This document shows positions 90 to 13,367 of a stretch of DNA of 63,553 nucleotides, one piece after another. The notes under the pieces were generated by a model. That model was not told the DNA's origin, made no database searches, and saw only the letters and a program-made list of their open reading frames with translations. Position numbers and translations under genes: made by a program. Position 1 is the first letter of the stretch; every line of letters starts with the position of its first letter. This stretch comes from Verrucomicrobiota bacterium (lineage in GTDB: Bacteria > Verrucomicrobiota > Verrucomicrobiia > Limisphaerales > UBA8199): positions 1-63,553 of the forward strand of contig JBDHQH010000006.1 in NCBI GenBank assembly GCA_039806935.1, in the 5' to 3' direction.

Positions 90-875
90 ATGCCGCCTGA
101 ACTATCAGTGGTTGTTCCATTCTTTAACGAGGCTGAGAACGTCGGTCCCCTAATCGAACGTGTGTTCGAAGCACTGCGGAGCCAATCCGGCGGACTCGAG
201 CTGTTGCTCGTGGATGACGGCAGCACCGACGACACTTGGGTTCGCATCCGCGAGGCCGCCACGAGGGATCCCCGCGTGCGGCCATTGCGGCATCCCAGCA
301 ATCAAGGGCAGAGCGCCGCCCTGTGGACCGGCTTTAGAGCCAGCCGCGGCCGCGTGATCGCCACCCTGGACGGAGATTTGCAAAATGATCCGGCGGATTT
401 CCCGATGATGCTGGCGGAACTGGCGGGCTGCGATCTGGTCTGCGGGGTTCGCACCAGGCGCGCGGATAATCTCTTGCGACGCGCCTCAACCCGCGTCGCG
501 CGCTGGGCCCGACGGACGGCGCTGCGCGTCGATTTCGCGGATACCGGCTGCAATTTGCGTGTTTTCAAGGCGGAACTTATCCATGCGCTTCCGGCTTTTG
601 ATGGAATCCACCGGTTCATGCCCGTGCTGGCGCACGGCGCCGGCGCGGTGGTGCGCGAGGTGCCAGTTCGCCATCATCCCCGCATCGCGGGAGTTTCCAA
701 ATACGGAGTCTGGAATCGGCTGGGCCGCGGCATCCGCGATCTCATCATGGTCGGGCTGTTTCTTCGCCGGCAACTGAGGTTGCTCGACCCGGACAGACTG
801 CGGCATTCAGCCATGCCCGCCACAACCTCGTCTGGAGCACCCGAAGTTCGCGCGGATAAGCCGCTTGGCAAATGA
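90..875 (+). CDS. Glycosyltransferase family 2 (polyprenol-phosphate glycosyltransferase, ArnC/Dpm1-like)
   Basis: LSVVVPFFNE, LLVDDGSTD, TLDGDLQNDP, HHPRIAGVSKY motifs; start moved to in-frame ATG at 90. Confidence 0.9.
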   Translation: MPPELSVVVPFFNEAENVGPLIERVFEALRSQSGGLELLLVDDGSTDDTWVRIREAATRDPRVRPLRHPSNQGQSAALWTGFRASRGRVIATLDGDLQNDPADFPMMLAELAGCDLVCGVRTRRADNLLRRASTRVARWARRTALRVDFADTGCNLRVFKAELIHALPAFDGIHRFMPVLAHGAGAVVREVPVRHHPRIAGVSKYGVWNRLGRGIRDLIMVGLFLRRQLRLLDPDRLRHSAMPATTSSGAPEVRADKPLGK

Positions 876-903
876 GGCCCGGCGGGCTTAACTCCCAAGG
901 CGC

Positions 904-1827
904 ATGACAAATCAATCTCTGAAAGCGGCCCTGGCCGAGCGCGTGCTCGTCTGTGATGGAGCCATGGGAACGCAACTGATGCTGGCCGGTTTGGAATCCG
1001 GCGGCTGTGGGGAGGCCTGGAACCTGTCGCATCCGGACCGGGTGCTGGCGATCCAAAAGCGTTACGTCGAAGCCGGCGCCGATTGCCTGATCACCAACAC
1101 CTTCGGAGGGAACCGGCTGATGCTGACCCGCCACGGTCACGCGGAGGATTTGGCCGAGCTGAACCGCGCCGGCGCCCGGATCGCCCGAGCGGCTTTTGGC
1201 GGCCGGCCGGGATTTGTGCTGGGGGACATGGGGCCCGTGGGAGGCGTCCTCGAGCCGTATGGTGATTTGAGAATCGAGGAAGTGCGGCCTGCCCTGGAGG
1301 AGCAAGCCGCAGCCCTGGTCGAAGGCGGTGTGGACGCCATCATTTTAGAGACACAGACAGCCTTGGAGGAGTTGGAATTGGGGATCGCCGCGGCTAAGGC
1401 CGCCGGGGCGCCTTGCATCATCGCCTCCCTGGCCTACGATCGCTCGTTGGACGGCACGTTCTTCAAAACGATGATGGGTATTTCGCCCGGACAAGCCGCG
1501 GAGTTTGCCCAGAAACAGGGCGCGGATATCGTGGCGCTGAACTGCGGCACCGGCATGGATATGAAGGCGGCGGCGCAGCTTATCCCCTTGTACCGCGGCG
1601 CCTGCACGCTGTTCACGATGGCCCAGCCGAACGCGGGCTTGCCCGTCCTGGAAAACCTCCAAGCGGTTTACAAGCAAACACCGGCGCAAATGGTGGCGGA
1701 TTTGCCCCTCCTGCTTGCCGCCGGAGTGAATATTGTGGGCTCGTGCTGTGGTAGCACACCCGAGCATACCCGGGCTATTCGGGCCACGGTGGACGCGTGG
1801 CGGCCAGACCTCACCGCCAGAGACTAA
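904..1827 (+). CDS. Stand-alone homocysteine S-methyltransferase domain (MetH N-terminal-like)
   Basis: DGAMGTQL, AGADCLITNTFG, Zn ligands ALNCG and GSCCGSTPEH, PNAGLP; no pterin- or cobalamin-binding domain follows. Confidence 0.9.
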   Translation: MTNQSLKAALAERVLVCDGAMGTQLMLAGLESGGCGEAWNLSHPDRVLAIQKRYVEAGADCLITNTFGGNRLMLTRHGHAEDLAELNRAGARIARAAFGGRPGFVLGDMGPVGGVLEPYGDLRIEEVRPALEEQAAALVEGGVDAIILETQTALEELELGIAAAKAAGAPCIIASLAYDRSLDGTFFKTMMGISPGQAAEFAQKQGADIVALNCGTGMDMKAAAQLIPLYRGACTLFTMAQPNAGLPVLENLQAVYKQTPAQMVADLPLLLAAGVNIVGSCCGSTPEHTRAIRATVDAWRPDLTARD

Positions 1828-2159
1828 GGCCGCGCCAGGACAATCTCATTCCCGTCGAAGCTCAGCTCCACGCCGGCGGCCCGGGCGGCTTCACGCAACG
1901 CCGCCTCGAGCATGACCACGGGATCTTTGCTCACGTCCAGACGGCGCATAATCCCCTCTCCCTTGCGATCGCCGATCGTCAGCGTCACCTTCAGCCCTTT
2001 GCGTTTGCAGATGATCCGGGATCCGTCAGGCAACGTGGTATTTAATGGTTTGATGAAGGCGTCCACATAATGGACGCCAATGCCTGACTTGTCGCGCACT
2101 CCGGGTGCTAGTTGGTCGCGAACCGCGGGATTCACCTCGCAGATTTTTTGTCGTGTCAT
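1824..2159 (-). CDS. Hypothetical protein (111 aa), last gene of corrinoid-activator operon
   Basis: ATGA overlap with upstream stop at 2156-2159; globular-looking composition; no recognised motif. Confidence 0.75.
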   Translation of the reverse strand: MTRQKICEVNPAVRDQLAPGVRDKSGIGVHYVDAFIKPLNTTLPDGSRIICKRKGLKVTLTIGDRKGEGIMRRLDVSKDPVVMLEAALREAARAAGVELSFDGNEIVLARP

Positions 2160-3424
2160 ATCGTTTGAATCGGTCCACAGGCCGGCCAGGCCGCGGATGG
2201 TTGACTGAGAGCAAAGTGGATTACCTCAAACACGAGACCCCATTTGTGGTCGCGCGAACTGCGGTCGCAATAGCAGCCCGCCGGTTGACTCGCCCGCTTC
2301 CAGGACAACGCCTCCGCGAGCGGCCGGCCCAGGAGCGGTTTCTCGGCGGCCACCTCGGCCAGCAGCCGCTCTCCGGCGCGCAGATAACCGCACATCGAGC
2401 GATGCCCCTCATCTCCAGGCGCGGGAGCGCAAGCCAGTCCCATTACCTTCCGTCCTTCCTCCCGCGGGCCGAGCCGGACAACATATTGAAATTCCAGCGG
2501 CCGGCCCAGATTGGAGCAGGTGGTGCCGTGATAGCGGAAGACCGCGGTGGTCTCGCCCGCCGGCGAGGTCGTCAGCCGCAGGTGTTCGCCGGCCCATTTG
2601 CGCAAAGTTTTTTCGCGAAACGAATATGGCCACGGCCCGACTGGCGTTACCATGGCTGGACTTGGATTCCGGACTTGCGGATCCGGATTCCAGGCATCAT
2701 GGCGATAAGGCGCACGCCGATACCGGCAGGCGGGAAAAGCGCAAGCTTCGCACGGAATCAGATCCGGGATAGCACGAGCCAAATCAATGCGCGGGGTGAT
2801 CCCCACGAGGGCCAACTGCGATTTAGCCGGCGCCAACATCCCGCTGGCGAGCAATTCCAGAGGCCCAGGGAACCCGCCGGGGGCGCGGTCCGAAGCCAGC
2901 TCGAAGAGCGGGTGTTGGTCCTCGATTCTCCATCCGGTATAGCCGGGGCTGTAATGCGCCAATGCCGCCATCCCCCGCCCTTCGGCCCAGGCGCAGATCC
3001 GCGCGCCCGCATCGGCGATCAAGCGCTCGACTGCCGCCGCGCCGAGGGTCTGAAGGAAGAAGTATTCGTCGGACTTTCCCGCCCGCCACAATTCCCCGGC
3101 CTGCTGCTCGCATTCCACGCCGGCGCTCGCCGCCACCAACACACCGGCGTTCACCTCCGCCCGAAGCCATAAATTTCGCAAGCGCGAGGAATGCAGAGTC
3201 CGGCCGGCGATCTCCAAATCATCCACGGTCAGCCGGAGCCGTTCCAATTCCCATGCGCAAAGCCAGGGCCGCCCGTGAGCCGCGTACCAGACCCTGGCCT
3301 GAAGACTCAACTCCCGCGCTCGCCCCTCCAGCCGCCGCCCCGGCGGATAGCCAAGCAGGCGGCCATACTCTCCCTCGTGGATTTGCACCGCCGGGGCAGG
3401 ATCAATGAATGCAAAACCGTTCAT
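2156..3424 (-). CDS. Methionine synthase reactivation (AdoMet-binding) domain-like protein with additional Cys-rich C-terminal domain
   Basis: HYSPGYTGWRIEDQ...LLASGMLAPAKSQLALVG then CEACAFPACRYR, resembling stand-alone B12 activation domains; start at ATG 3424 (ATGA overlap with upstream stop). Confidence 0.7.
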   Translation of the reverse strand: MNGFAFIDPAPAVQIHEGEYGRLLGYPPGRRLEGRARELSLQARVWYAAHGRPWLCAWELERLRLTVDDLEIAGRTLHSSRLRNLWLRAEVNAGVLVAASAGVECEQQAGELWRAGKSDEYFFLQTLGAAAVERLIADAGARICAWAEGRGMAALAHYSPGYTGWRIEDQHPLFELASDRAPGGFPGPLELLASGMLAPAKSQLALVGITPRIDLARAIPDLIPCEACAFPACRYRRAPYRHDAWNPDPQVRNPSPAMVTPVGPWPYSFREKTLRKWAGEHLRLTTSPAGETTAVFRYHGTTCSNLGRPLEFQYVVRLGPREEGRKVMGLACAPAPGDEGHRSMCGYLRAGERLLAEVAAEKPLLGRPLAEALSWKRASQPAGCYCDRSSRDHKWGLVFEVIHFALSQPSAAWPACGPIQTI

Positions 3425-5076
3425 GCCTGCCGGGCCGTCGCGCCGGCCATTGGTTCCAAGGGCAGGAACTGACAGCCATCGACAAAACAGTTGAAGAACT
3501 CGGGATGTGTTTCCAGCCGGCAATGCGAGATCCGCTGGACCAGCGACTCCAATTCACGGCGCCGGGTGACGGAGAGCAGCGCCAGACAGGCGCCCTCGAT
3601 CGCCGCGTTTCCCACACGGATAATTTTCTCGAGCGGGAGGTTGGGAATGAGTCCAACGCGCTGGGCGGCTTCCGGGTCGAGGTGGCGGCCAAAACCACCC
3701 GCCAAATAGAAGCACTCCAGATCCTCGAAGCGCGCGCCGAACCGATCAAAGAGGATTTGCAGACCGGCTGCGTTCGCGCCTTTCGCCTGCGCCAACTCGT
3801 TGATATCCGCCTCGCTTAAATAGATTTCCCCATCCGCGTTTTTTGAGAGCACCACCCGCTCCAGGCCGTCCTGAAGACGCCCCAGAGAGTTCATTTGCCC
3901 AGTGCGCCGCAACTCGCTGAGCGTTTCCACCAATCCTGAGCCACAAATTCCCGAAGGCGGGCCGCCTCCGATCACCTCGACCCTCCAGCCGCTCTCATTC
4001 CAACGCACCCTCTCAATGGCCCCCGGCAGCCCCGGCATCCCGCGCGCAATCCGCCCACCCTCAAAGGCCGGGCCAGCGGGACACGAAGCGGCCATTACTT
4101 TGTGGCGATTGCCCAGAAGAAGCTCGGTGTTCGTGCCGATATCCATCAAGGCCACCAGCCGATCTTCCTCCGCCAGATTGATTGCCAATGCGCAGGCAGC
4201 GGCATCTGCCCCCACATGCCCGCTAATTATCGGACAGCCGTAAGCTCGCGCCTGTGGGTGAATAGGCAAGCCGAGGCGCCTGGCGTTGGCTGTGACGCTG
4301 GTGCAAGGTCGGCGTCCCTCGGCCTGCTCCACCTCAGTGATGGATTGGTAGGGGCTTTGGCCAATCGAAAAAACGTTTAACCTGAAAAAAAGATCGCGCA
4401 TCGTGGTGTTGCCCACCACAACCGCCTCATAAATGTTCTCTGGCGGGATCGGAAGCTCCTCAATGGCGTGCGCCAGATAACCCGCCAGCGTTCTTTGTAA
4501 CAGGCCCTTGCCCTCCACCGTATCGTAACTGATCCGCGCCATGATGTCCGACCCGCCAAATCGTTGCGGATTTTCAAAGGCGCAATCGGCGACCCTCTCG
4601 CCAGTCTCGAGGTTCAGCAAGCGCACCACGACGGTGGTGGTGCCAATATCGATCGCTATTCCATGCGCTGGAACCGAGCTTTCCCCAATCTTAATTTCGT
4701 CCAGAAACACGCGGCTTCCCACACGATGCACCGCTGGATCCAGGGTGGCTTGACCGGGGCGGGCAGGCAGGCCGGACGCCTGTCGTTCGATCCGCATTTC
4801 GCCGCGCCGCATGGTGCGAGCGCGCACTCGCGACGCCTCCGGCGCCAATCGCGCGCAGCAAGCAAGCCGGAAAGTATCTTTCAGGTGGTTTTCGGCGGGA
4901 TCCGGCGAGGAAAGGAACTCCAGTCCCTCGGTTACCTCGACAATGCATTCCTTGCAGCGCCCGTTCTTATGGCAGGAGGTCGGAATCCTTACCCCCAGCG
5001 CGTCCGCGCATTCGAAAAGGGACAGTCCCGGGGCGAACTCACCCGTTTTTTGGTTCAAATGCACTTCGGTGCTCAT
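3421..5076 (-). CDS. ASKHA-type ATP-dependent reductive activator of corrinoid proteins (RACo/DUF4445) with N-terminal 2Fe-2S ferredoxin
   Basis: SCHKNGRCKEC...RLACC ferredoxin motif; IAIDIGTTTVV, NPQRFGGSDIMARI, VVGNTTM, MDIGTNTE, SCPAGPAFEG, GICGSG, LAGGFG, VGNAAIEGA. Confidence 0.9.
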   Translation of the reverse strand: MSTEVHLNQKTGEFAPGLSLFECADALGVRIPTSCHKNGRCKECIVEVTEGLEFLSSPDPAENHLKDTFRLACCARLAPEASRVRARTMRRGEMRIERQASGLPARPGQATLDPAVHRVGSRVFLDEIKIGESSVPAHGIAIDIGTTTVVVRLLNLETGERVADCAFENPQRFGGSDIMARISYDTVEGKGLLQRTLAGYLAHAIEELPIPPENIYEAVVVGNTTMRDLFFRLNVFSIGQSPYQSITEVEQAEGRRPCTSVTANARRLGLPIHPQARAYGCPIISGHVGADAAACALAINLAEEDRLVALMDIGTNTELLLGNRHKVMAASCPAGPAFEGGRIARGMPGLPGAIERVRWNESGWRVEVIGGGPPSGICGSGLVETLSELRRTGQMNSLGRLQDGLERVVLSKNADGEIYLSEADINELAQAKGANAAGLQILFDRFGARFEDLECFYLAGGFGRHLDPEAAQRVGLIPNLPLEKIIRVGNAAIEGACLALLSVTRRRELESLVQRISHCRLETHPEFFNCFVDGCQFLPLEPMAGATARQA

Positions 5077-5137
5077 GCGACCAGCAGCCTTAAGGTTGAT
5101 AGGATGTTATGCCAGCCGACCACAAACGCAATTGGGA

Positions 5138-5503
5138 TCAGCGCGCCTTTGAAGCCGGCGCCCGTGAGGCGCGCCAGCGTTGCACGCGCCAGAAGAAACC
5201 GCCGAAGAAGAGGGCGCCGCAAAGATTTACTCCCAAGGTGTAGCCAAGCTTGTATGGAACTCCGCTATTCTCGCGCGCGTAAATGGCAATATCCCGCCCC
5301 AGGAGCAGATTGGGCATCGCCATGGGCATCACCGCGCCTTGGGCCATTCCGCTGAAAAAGCCCGCCGGCTGCTTCTTCTCATCTACCAGAGCCGCCAGCC
5401 GGCCACCCCCCCGCCCCACGAGCAACGCCAGGGCGATGACGAGCACGAGTCTGCCAAACAACCGCGCCACGCGAGCGGCCCCGACCAAATCACCTCGTCG
5501 CAT
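5138..5503 (-). CDS. Small membrane protein, hypothetical
   Basis: Hydrophobic segments; PAGFFSGMAQG...IYARENSGVPYKLGY pattern; ATG 5503 overlaps end of upstream GT2. Confidence 0.6.
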   Translation of the reverse strand: MRRGDLVGAARVARLFGRLVLVIALALLVGRGGGRLAALVDEKKQPAGFFSGMAQGAVMPMAMPNLLLGRDIAIYARENSGVPYKLGYTLGVNLCGALFFGGFFWRVQRWRASRAPASKAR

Positions 5504-6263
5504 AGCCGTCGTGGAGAGCGTCCCTCGCCGTTGAACCGCGAGGGAGACCGGAGTTGGAGCCTCCCAATCTGCGGTTGGCCTGCTCGCGGTACTGCTCCCG
5601 GCGGGCCCGGAAATACCATCGAAACCACCGAGCCGAGTCGCGCACGGGACGTATTTTAGAGCGTTCGGCGGCATAAATCACGCGGATGGGGACGAATTCG
5701 ATGCGCAGTTTTGCCCGGGCAAAACGCCAGATCAGATCGGATTCCACCTCGAAATGATTGGCGGCAACCATCGCTTCCGCCCACCGCGGCAGTTCGATCA
5801 AACGAAAGCCGCATTGGGAGTCCGGTAACGGTTGCCCCGCCAGAGCGGAAATGCGCCGGCTCATCCACGAATTGATCATTCGCCGGAGCCGGGGCATGGC
5901 GTCCGGATTCCCAGTGCGGTTGCCGACGACCAAAGCAGCTCCAGTGCGATTCCGACACTCGAAAAATGCCGGGATGTCCTCGGGCGCGTGCTGACCGTCG
6001 CCATCCAGACATAAAGCCCATTGGAAACCCCGCTGGAAGGCCCACTCCCACCCGTGGCGCAGAGCCGAGCCTTTCCCAAGATTTGAGGGTCGCCGGAGCA
6101 CCTCGGCTCCGGCTGCACGCGCTCGCGCGGAGGTGGAGTCGGATGAACCATCATCCACGACGAGAACTTCGGGCGCGAATCTCCGGATTCGCCTCACGAG
6201 CACGGCGATCGAGTCTTCCTCGTTGAAGCACGGGATGATGGCGACAGCCAACGGATCAGCCAT
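5490..6263 (-). CDS. Glycosyltransferase family 2 (Dpm1-like)
   Basis: IIPCFNEE, VVDDGSSD, NLGKGSAL, LDGDGQH, DSQCGFRL. Confidence 0.9.
   Translation of the reverse strand: MADPLAVAIIPCFNEEDSIAVLVRRIRRFAPEVLVVDDGSSDSTSARARAAGAEVLRRPSNLGKGSALRHGWEWAFQRGFQWALCLDGDGQHAPEDIPAFFECRNRTGAALVVGNRTGNPDAMPRLRRMINSWMSRRISALAGQPLPDSQCGFRLIELPRWAEAMVAANHFEVESDLIWRFARAKLRIEFVPIRVIYAAERSKIRPVRDSARWFRWYFRARREQYREQANRRLGGSNSGLPRGSTARDALHDGYATR

Positions 6264-10303: not shown

Positions 10304-13367
<3,064 letters not shown>

Follow-up and report, generated by a model that had tools for sequence, protein, structure and literature searches.

A four-gene locus in a Verrucomicrobiota genome and its likely place in a modular corrinoid methyltransferase system

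Textbook accounts of modular corrinoid methyltransferases deal with strict anaerobes. In bacterial aryl O-demethylases, the methyltransferase I (MT I) enzyme is a member of the URO-D/MtaA family, and the system relies on a RACo-type activating enzyme. A link between demethylation and methionine synthesis has only recently been shown in aerobic marine bacteria, where a single corrinoid protein of the MtgBCDE system serves both the demethylation of glycine betaine and the synthesis of methionine (PMC12478193, PMC5764234). The present study concerns four genes (the module) at positions 904 to 5076 of a 63,553-nucleotide stretch of DNA (the window; contig JBDHQH010000006.1, assembly GCA_039806935.1) from a Verrucomicrobiota bacterium. 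We consider it rather likely that these genes make up that half of a modular corrinoid methyltransferase system which accepts the methyl group and reactivates the corrinoid, and that the donor half is encoded on another contig, C164, of the same genome (95% complete). The system probably takes a methyl group off a compound of plant origin and hands it to homocysteine, yielding methionine.

The reports on Phaeobacter inhibens and Ruegeria pomeroyi (PMC5764234, PMC12478193) describe a split methionine synthase (MetH) and MtgBCDE, which resemble our module in that a stand-alone PF02574 module takes the methyl group from a separate corrinoid protein that is also loaded by a substrate-specific methyltransferase. 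Likewise, they require a Fer2+DUF4445 activator (RamA/RACo-like) together with a second reactivation-linked protein, work in aerobes and can coexist with canonical MetH. The four-component O-demethylases of anaerobes (PMC6739815) share with the module an MT I enzyme, a small corrinoid protein and an ATP-dependent RACo-type activator that reverses Co(II) oxidation. The features of the locus are listed below with the evidence that defines each; P0002 as a whole (422 aa) is encoded at 2156-3424 on the minus strand, from an ATG at 3424.

3421-5076, minus strand: P0001, RACo-type activator, 551 aa (Pfam, NCBIfam, PDB 3zyy)
2765-3424, minus strand: P0002 N-terminal domain, residues 1-220, modelled with a TM0269/MetH activation fold (VIA, Foldseek)
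2639-2764, minus strand: P0002 Cys-rich linker, residues 221-262 (31-sequence alignment, pLDDT)
2159-2638, minus strand: P0002 C-terminal domain, residues 263-422, alpha/beta (domain model, conserved Cys/His)
1824-2159, minus strand: P0003, conserved protein, 111 aa (homologue family, linkage)
904-1827, plus strand: P0004, stand-alone MetH-type homocysteine methyltransferase (HcyMT) domain, 307 aa (Pfam, PDB 1q7m)

The three minus-strand genes are joined by ATGA overlaps, at 3421-3424 between the 551- and 422-aa genes and at 2156-2159 between the 422- and 111-aa genes, and the TAG stop of the last one (1824-1826) overlaps the TAA stop of the plus-strand gene (1825-1827). Both arrangements had been claimed in the original prediction, an earlier reading of this DNA from its letters, and the sequence bears them out. 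The convergent layout recurs in two module-carrying relatives of the same family, where the genes stand 2.6-3.8 kb apart. A promoter and terminator scan of positions 700-5600 returned nothing above shuffled expectation.

P0001 appears from its domains to be a RACo-type ATP-dependent reductive activator of corrinoid proteins. It combines a 2Fe-2S ferredoxin domain, a RACo middle domain and an ASKHA ATPase domain, with Pfam matches to Fer2 (E 1.7e-8), Raco_middle (E 5.5e-35) and RACo_C_ter (E 4.7e-69), all above cut-off. Residues 128-539 match the RACo structure 3zyy at E 1.9e-65, and the protein scores 275.6 bits against the AcsV-like NCBIfam model, under the cut-off of 800. It is the sole RACo gene of the genome (one PF14574 match genome-wide). 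P0004 carries the S-methyl_trans domain (PF02574, E 6.1e-56); its nearest PDB relative is the homocysteine (Hcy) domain of Thermotoga maritima MetH (1q7m, E 3.2e-45), with betaine-homocysteine methyltransferase (BHMT, E 5.2e-11) and an S-methylmethionine-type enzyme (5dml, E 1.8e-9) following. By these scores it is of the MetH type, not of the BHMT or S-methylmethionine type. When the two are aligned, its motifs NC(S/G)xG and (G/S)CCGxTPEH have their counterparts in NCS and GCCG of 1q7m. The cysteines C214, C281 and C282, which we take to be the zinc ligands, are conserved in 55, 54 and 54 of 57 homologues, respectively, the exceptions being one valine at C214 and otherwise gaps. The earlier assignments of a 2Fe-2S/ASKHA activator of RACo type and of a stand-alone Hcy methyltransferase domain hold on these matches.

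P0002 has no Pfam or NCBIfam match, even at E<=10, and the more than 1247 members of its family are all called 'hypothetical' where the source names them. Because of this, the description 'MetH reactivation-like' given in the original prediction is invisible to family models and was confirmed by fold only. In the AlphaFold model (pLDDT 81.7), the N-terminal half of P0002 adopts the fold of TM0269 and the MetH activation domains: VIA superposes residues 1-220 on TM0269 (1j6r) with Z 19.1 (rmsd 2.5, 194 of 197 residues) and on the MetH activation domains 8ssd, 6bdy and 3bul with Z 15.0-15.5, the next unrelated fold reaching Z 6.3. This is the comparison by which the earlier description was to be checked, and the fold matched. 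Foldseek found 1j6r at E 3e-9, and 19 of 19 matches at E<=1e-3 were TM0269 or MetH activation-domain entries. The sole sequence-level signal was a weak profile match to 1j6r alone (E 0.047), a single-sequence search of the PDB giving a chance match only (E 1.2). TM0269 was reportedly described by Huang et al. in 2007 as a separate activation subunit of T. maritima MetH; besides the superposition, an S-P-G-Y motif is common to both proteins. In the P0002 family (31 aligned sequences) this motif lies within the invariant H157-Y-S-P-G-Y162, and cysteines 144, 225, 228, 233, 303, 332, 345, 384 and 386 are invariant as well.

The linker of P0002 contains an invariant P-C-x2-C-x4-C-x2-R-R-x-P motif (C225, C228, C233) and is predicted to be disordered on its own (pLDDT <50 at residues 223-262); its cysteines are a candidate metal or Fe-S site. 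The C-terminal domain, in which C303, C332, C345, C384, C386 and H393 are invariant, gave a model of pLDDT 88.3 and pTM 0.84 when folded alone, and its relatives number 314 representatives at E<=1e-3 among 1.84 billion. Foldseek returned 0 PDB matches for it at E<=1e-3, its profile none below E 1 in the PDB, and the ESM Atlas no usable match for it or for P0003. Its best VIA scores, Z 6.5 (the FMN-binding subunit RnfG) and Z 4.6 (IscU), fall below the level that the tool treats as meaningful, and therefore no fold was assigned; an IscU-like scaffold, which was considered, is unsupported at Z 4.6.

P0003 was called an unknown in the original prediction, and no Pfam or NCBIfam model matches it even at E<=10; its profile found nothing in the PDB below E 1. 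It has 3137 homologues, one of them in the culturable Opitutus terrae, with a Pfam domain in none of the 120 listed. The family is about 108 aa long, with C7, H30, D33, D45, K52, R53, R72, R73 and D79 invariant. Among 31 genomes compared (that of the window and 30 relatives), P0002 and P0003 are present in the same three, namely the window's own and two relatives, and the two form an accessory pair; P0002 is absent from all 150 other genomes sampled in the phylum. A prediction of the P0002-P0003 complex, run without controls, scored 0.00 and speaks neither for nor against an interaction. Gene fusions support physical cooperation of the module's proteins. A 948-aa protein of the representative library (P0464) joins a RACo (residues 1-534; Fer2, middle and ASKHA domains) to a full-length P0002 (residues 544-942, 35% identical), and one fragment joins the C-terminal domain of P0002 to an HcyMT.

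Relatives of P0002 were found in at least 513 places (a scan with one genome per species), and the best 80 of these at least 513 loci were analysed in detail, their neighbouring genes being clustered first and then searched by tblastn. Phylum labels were assigned for the 73 loci where ORF calling recovered P0002: Acidobacteriota (30), Verrucomicrobiota (18), Ignavibacteriota (8), Planctomycetota (6), Bacteroidota (3), Chloroflexota (2) and others. The culturable Fontivita pretiosa is among the carriers (locus L061). Of the 80 loci, 78 contain RACo, which stands immediately upstream of P0002 in 77, and the two exceptions lie at the ends of contigs; 79 contain P0003. An HcyMT of at least 55% identity occurs in 56 loci: in 41 it lies between P0002 and P0003, in 3 it follows P0003 directly, in 9 it is upstream on the opposite strand and in 3 it lies elsewhere. 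In 8 further loci, from Ignavibacteriota and Bacteroidota, the operon ends with a PF02574-like gene of 36-39% identity. Since the same gene set stands in 80 related loci, the arrangement in the window is not due to chance.

The same loci were examined for the B12-binding, pterin-binding and MtaA/UroD-like partners that the original prediction had suggested looking for. A corrinoid protein (B12-binding_2 + B12-binding) was found by tblastn in 62 of the 80 and a URO-D/MtaA-like protein in 61; pterin-binding genes are confined to 9. In most loci the URO-D/MtaA-family enzyme, the small corrinoid protein and RACo are adjacent, whereas here they are split between C164 and the window. Among the 19 genomes without URO-D in the locus, 15 carry an orthologue at least 74% identical elsewhere, often 10-26 kb off on the same contig, so that 76 of the 80 genomes possess one. 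An 86-aa PF13769 protein is encoded separately near the corrinoid protein in 58 loci (tblastn), and in Acidobacteriota the genes typically run URO-D, corrinoid protein, PF13769, RACo, P0002, HcyMT, P0003. In 12 of 13 mostly verrucomicrobial loci (L109-L121), the corrinoid protein is fused at its C-terminus to PF13769, for example in a 329-aa protein at L110:10660-11649; the Pfam name 'Virulence factor' looks like a misnomer for an accessory domain of corrinoid systems. In a quick tree of P0002, the phyla cluster well (9 label changes against a minimum of 6).

As an observation in its own right, one verrucomicrobial locus (L111:3587-7825, genome G183) encodes a full-length canonical MetH about 1.2 kb from the module-linked URO-D, with an AXE1 esterase gene adjoining.

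The original prediction had placed the corrinoid protein and the methyl-donor transferase outside the window, and this is where we found them. The genome gave 7 B12-binding matches. Among these are two stand-alone corrinoid proteins, each of which has a URO-D-family methyltransferase as its neighbour. On contig C164, an AraC regulator is followed by a URO-D protein (PF01208, E 4.9e-43) and a corrinoid protein of about 214 aa (B12-binding_2 + B12-binding). This pair is 77-84% identical to the module-linked genes (median 77% for URO-D, 79-80% for the corrinoid protein), and by this likeness its members are their orthologues. Together with the activation fold of P0002, they largely support the earlier interpretation of a modular B12 methyl-transfer system. 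The other pair, at the very end of the 6.6-kb contig C147, where the contig end cuts off the upstream part, consists of a 218-aa corrinoid protein and a 337-aa MtaA/CmuA methyltransferase (174 bits to TIGR01463; L012:4833-6499, minus strand). As partners of the module these were rejected, being 44% and 20% identical to the module-linked corrinoid protein and URO-D, against 77-84% for the C164 pair; they are paralogues. With a single RACo in the genome, the C147 and C164 systems presumably share it.

Where the methyl group goes in this genome bears on a rival in which the module would be a split methionine synthase of the Phaeobacter/Ruegeria kind, receiving its methyl from methyl-tetrahydrofolate through a separate pterin-binding subunit, with RACo and P0002 serving reactivation only. 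The reports on P. inhibens and R. pomeroyi give the same list of parts (PF02574 module, corrinoid protein, pterin-binding protein, RamA-like activator, DUF1638; PMC5764234, PMC12478193). Furthermore, a pterin-binding gene and an MTHFR+DUF5981 gene (MTHFR, methylenetetrahydrofolate reductase) are each present in 9 of the 80 loci and in 5 of the 13 mostly verrucomicrobial URO-D loci, and the module-linked pterin-binding protein scores best as a methyl-tetrahydrofolate:corrinoid methyltransferase (99 bits, below cut-off). However, no orthologue of either gene was found in the window's genome: the PF00809 matches there are MetH, a likely FolP and a stand-alone protein on contig C112 that scores as dihydropteroate synthase. 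The genome appears moreover to have a complete MetH with an activation domain of its own, a 1257-codon open frame with B12-binding, pterin-binding and activation domains and an HcyMT-like stretch just beyond these domains on the same contig (tblastn). A split synthase would also leave the conserved URO-D partner without a role, and we regard it as improbable. No MttB-family gene (PF06253) or DUF1638 gene (PF07796) was found in the genome either. Thus, with no pterin orthologue, MttB-family or DUF1638 gene and a full MetH, HcyMT is the only dedicated outlet here for a corrinoid-bound methyl group. The original prediction had left a choice between a split MetH and an O/N-demethylase feeding methionine; a complete MetH and the lack of a separate methyl-folate:corrinoid transferase speak for an O-demethylase-like system ending on homocysteine and against the split MetH.

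The neighbours of the related loci give hints of the methyl donor. A GH67 (glycoside hydrolase family 67) alpha-glucuronidase gene lies within 8 kb in 10 of the 80 loci, from three phyla, and is the sole GH67 copy in all 10 genomes; a CE15 (carbohydrate esterase family 15) glucuronyl esterase gene is found in 6-7. In the verrucomicrobial URO-D/corrinoid loci, CE15 occurs several more times, with GH43, GH28, GH2, AXE1, GDSL, SASA and feruloyl-esterase-like genes. The uronate genes UxuA, KduI, PfkB and MR_MLE occur in 3 of the 80 loci each, and 31 loci carry at least one such carbohydrate gene. Among the 60 module genomes searched, GH67 was detected in 42; among 14 control genomes, in 4. On C164, the neighbours are GH97 and the AraC regulator. 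These xylan-debranching and uronate neighbours point to 4-O-methyl-glucuronate or another plant-wall methyl ether, which is our best guess for the donor; 4-O-methyl-glucuronate itself we name tentatively. No 4-O-methyl-glucuronate demethylase, or corrinoid system tied to xylan, was found in the open-access literature.

The same neighbourhoods could be read as those of a modular system that acts on lignin-derived methoxylated aromatics (vanillate, syringate, ferulate), in the manner of the four-component O-demethylases that acetogens and Desulfitobacterium possess. CE15 esterases cleave lignin-carbohydrate esters, and they recur here together with BD-FAE feruloyl-esterase-like, FAA-hydrolase and aldehyde-dehydrogenase genes; there is an AraC regulator upstream on C164, and CdmB of Acetobacterium (9rui, E 1.9e-10) is among the PDB relatives of the URO-D protein. 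That similarity is non-discriminating, however, as UROD, CdmB and MtaA all match near 1e-10, and most of the neighbours that recur are enzymes acting on sugars and uronates (GH67, GH2, GH43, UxuA, KduI, PfkB) rather than ring-cleavage genes. An aromatic donor therefore appears unlikely to us.

The family scores of the URO-D protein raise another candidate. Its best NCBIfam models are methylcobalamin:coenzyme M methyltransferase (102 bits) and MtaA/CmuA (100.7, or about 101, bits), both below their cut-offs, with hemE at 60 bits; its orthologues keep four conserved cysteines and seven conserved histidines, residues that could form a metal site. The enzyme might then be a methyl-thiol transferase of the MtaA/MtsA type, shuttling methyl groups between methanethiol, dimethylsulfide or methylmercaptopropionate and homocysteine. 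However, genes of sulfur metabolism are not among the module's recurrent neighbours in the 80 loci, and the position that we take to be the H-x-C zinc motif of MtaA, placed without alignment to MtaA, reads H-N-D in the URO-D orthologues. We consider such a shuttle highly improbable.

From the domain identities, folds, gene linkage, co-occurrence and fusions described above, we infer the direction of methyl flow, AdoMet (S-adenosylmethionine) use, metal binding and donor of the O-demethylase-like system as follows. The URO-D-family enzyme would transfer the methyl group of a methyl ether or similar donor to Co(I) of the corrinoid protein, and the MetH-type HcyMT would move it from methyl-Co(III) to homocysteine, forming methionine. 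RACo would spend ATP to reduce the cofactor again after its oxidation to Co(II). P0002 would dock on the corrinoid protein through its TM0269/MetH-activation-like domain and probably capture Co(I) as methyl-Co(III) with AdoMet, aided by the Cys-rich linker, the C-terminal domain and P0003. Both reactivation chemistries, ATP- and AdoMet-dependent, might in this way be combined in one system. A more specific version, which we offer as speculation, is an O-demethylase for the 4-O-methyl-glucuronate of glucuronoxylan that frees the uronic acid for catabolism and passes the methyl group directly to homocysteine. In it, P0002 and P0003, with the PF13769 domain that is fused to the corrinoid protein in Verrucomicrobiota, would be a new AdoMet- and metal-dependent apparatus coupled to RACo, keeping a Co(I) enzyme working in oxygen-exposed bacteria.

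Several observations weigh against parts of this proposal. Which way the methyl group moves and which donor supplies it are tentative readings of the genes, and the C164 pair is unlinked to the window in this genome, its tie to the module coming from other genomes. The URO-D orthologue (at least 78% identity) is present in 6 genomes including the window's, 3 of which are without P0002 and P0003, and one relative (G162) has HcyMT, RACo and URO-D clustered without either protein, so that the pair is not obligatory. Catabolism in bulk would seem ill served by homocysteine as its only methyl acceptor. Pterin-binding and MTHFR genes are found in 9 of the 80 loci, so that in other genomes folate may take up most of the methyl groups; organisms with these genes would probably pass methyl groups to folate as well, a parallel to the MtgBCDE system. 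As to the donor, 18 of the 60 module genomes searched lack GH67, related loci are non-independent samples for the GH67 and CE15 counts, and the window's own genome, at its 95% completeness, yielded no GH67, CE15 orthologue or PF13769, so that the hint does not apply here.

The proposed chemistry of P0002 also meets objections. The presumed AdoMet-binding motif of the MetH activation domain is RxxxGY, and where TM0269 has an arginine before SPGY (R-I-S-P-G-Y, aligned), the P0002 family has the invariant H157, which leaves AdoMet use uncertain. The PF02965 model does not match P0002, even at E<=10, and hhalign found no relation between the P0002 profile and the activation domain of the MetH of its own genome. 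Besides, the P0002 of the window is divergent, with a terminal branch of 1.24 against a median of 0.25 in a quick tree of 75 homologues, and has a shorter linker of its own; all invariant cysteines and histidines are retained. The long branch could reflect fast evolution after transfer, or relaxed constraint.

Two other reading frames of the window are recorded here. Upstream of RACo, a 178-aa ORF (5138-5674, minus strand) was considered as a member of the module and set aside because it is conserved in none of the related loci. It has no family match and overlaps the end of a GT2 glycosyltransferase gene (5490-6263, minus strand) by 185 nt, and its true start is probably further downstream. 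At 10304-11962 (plus strand), a cytochrome b561-like membrane domain (Ni_hydr_CYTB) and a molybdopterin oxidoreductase domain (Oxidored_molyb) are joined in one 552-aa ORF, which looks from these domains like a single-chain fusion of MsrQ-like and MsrP-like proteins.

We found no description of the module in the open-access literature. It widens the theme of demethylation coupled to methionine synthesis to at least 513 species-level genomes of soil and freshwater phyla, among them Acidobacteriota, Verrucomicrobiota, Planctomycetota and Ignavibacteriota, and brings in another loading enzyme and two unannotated protein families. If the donor is indeed a plant-wall methyl ether, a gap in hemicellulose catabolism would be filled, polysaccharide degraders would acquire a B12 requirement, and the methyl groups of biomass would have a direct route to methionine and AdoMet. 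Furthermore, the RACo-P0002 fusion and the strict pairing of P0002 with P0003 offer a tractable handle on how ATP-driven reduction is combined with activation-domain chemistry.

Set against the described systems, the module differs from MtgBCDE in its loader, which is of the URO-D/MtaA family, whereas MtgB is of the MttB family and MtgD of the pterin-binding family (PMC12478193, PMC5764234). The two also differ in that the module's genome has neither PF06253 nor DUF1638, in their host phyla, and in the second reactivation protein, which in the module unites a TM0269 fold with a new Cys-rich C-terminal domain and has a 108-aa partner. In contrast to the four-component O-demethylases, the acceptor here is a MetH-type homocysteine domain and not a pterin-binding MT II (methyltransferase II), both kinds occurring together in 9 of the 80 loci; moreover, the module adds P0002 and P0003 and resides in Acidobacteriota, Verrucomicrobiota and Planctomycetota, beside polysaccharide-degrading genes.

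The individual proteins compare in a similar manner. P0002 adds to TM0269 a Cys-x2-Cys-x4-Cys linker and a 150-residue C-terminal domain, replaces the arginine before SPGY by histidine, and is encoded with RACo, not with MetH. P0001 has the identical three-domain architecture of Carboxydothermus hydrogenoformans RACo (3zyy, 4c1n); unlike that protein, it falls far under the AcsV cut-off and is not beside acetyl-CoA synthase genes, and its client would be a small MtaC/MtgC-like corrinoid protein rather than the corrinoid iron-sulfur protein (CoFeSP). The architecture is thus a variant of known modular corrinoid systems. It is new that a loader of the URO-D type is paired with a homocysteine module of the MetH type, and that a protein of TM0269 fold bears a Cys-rich extension and is encoded together with RACo, in some cases as a fusion. 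The P0003 family is new as well, as are the wide spread of the module in Acidobacteriota, Verrucomicrobiota and Planctomycetota and its link to hemicellulose genes.

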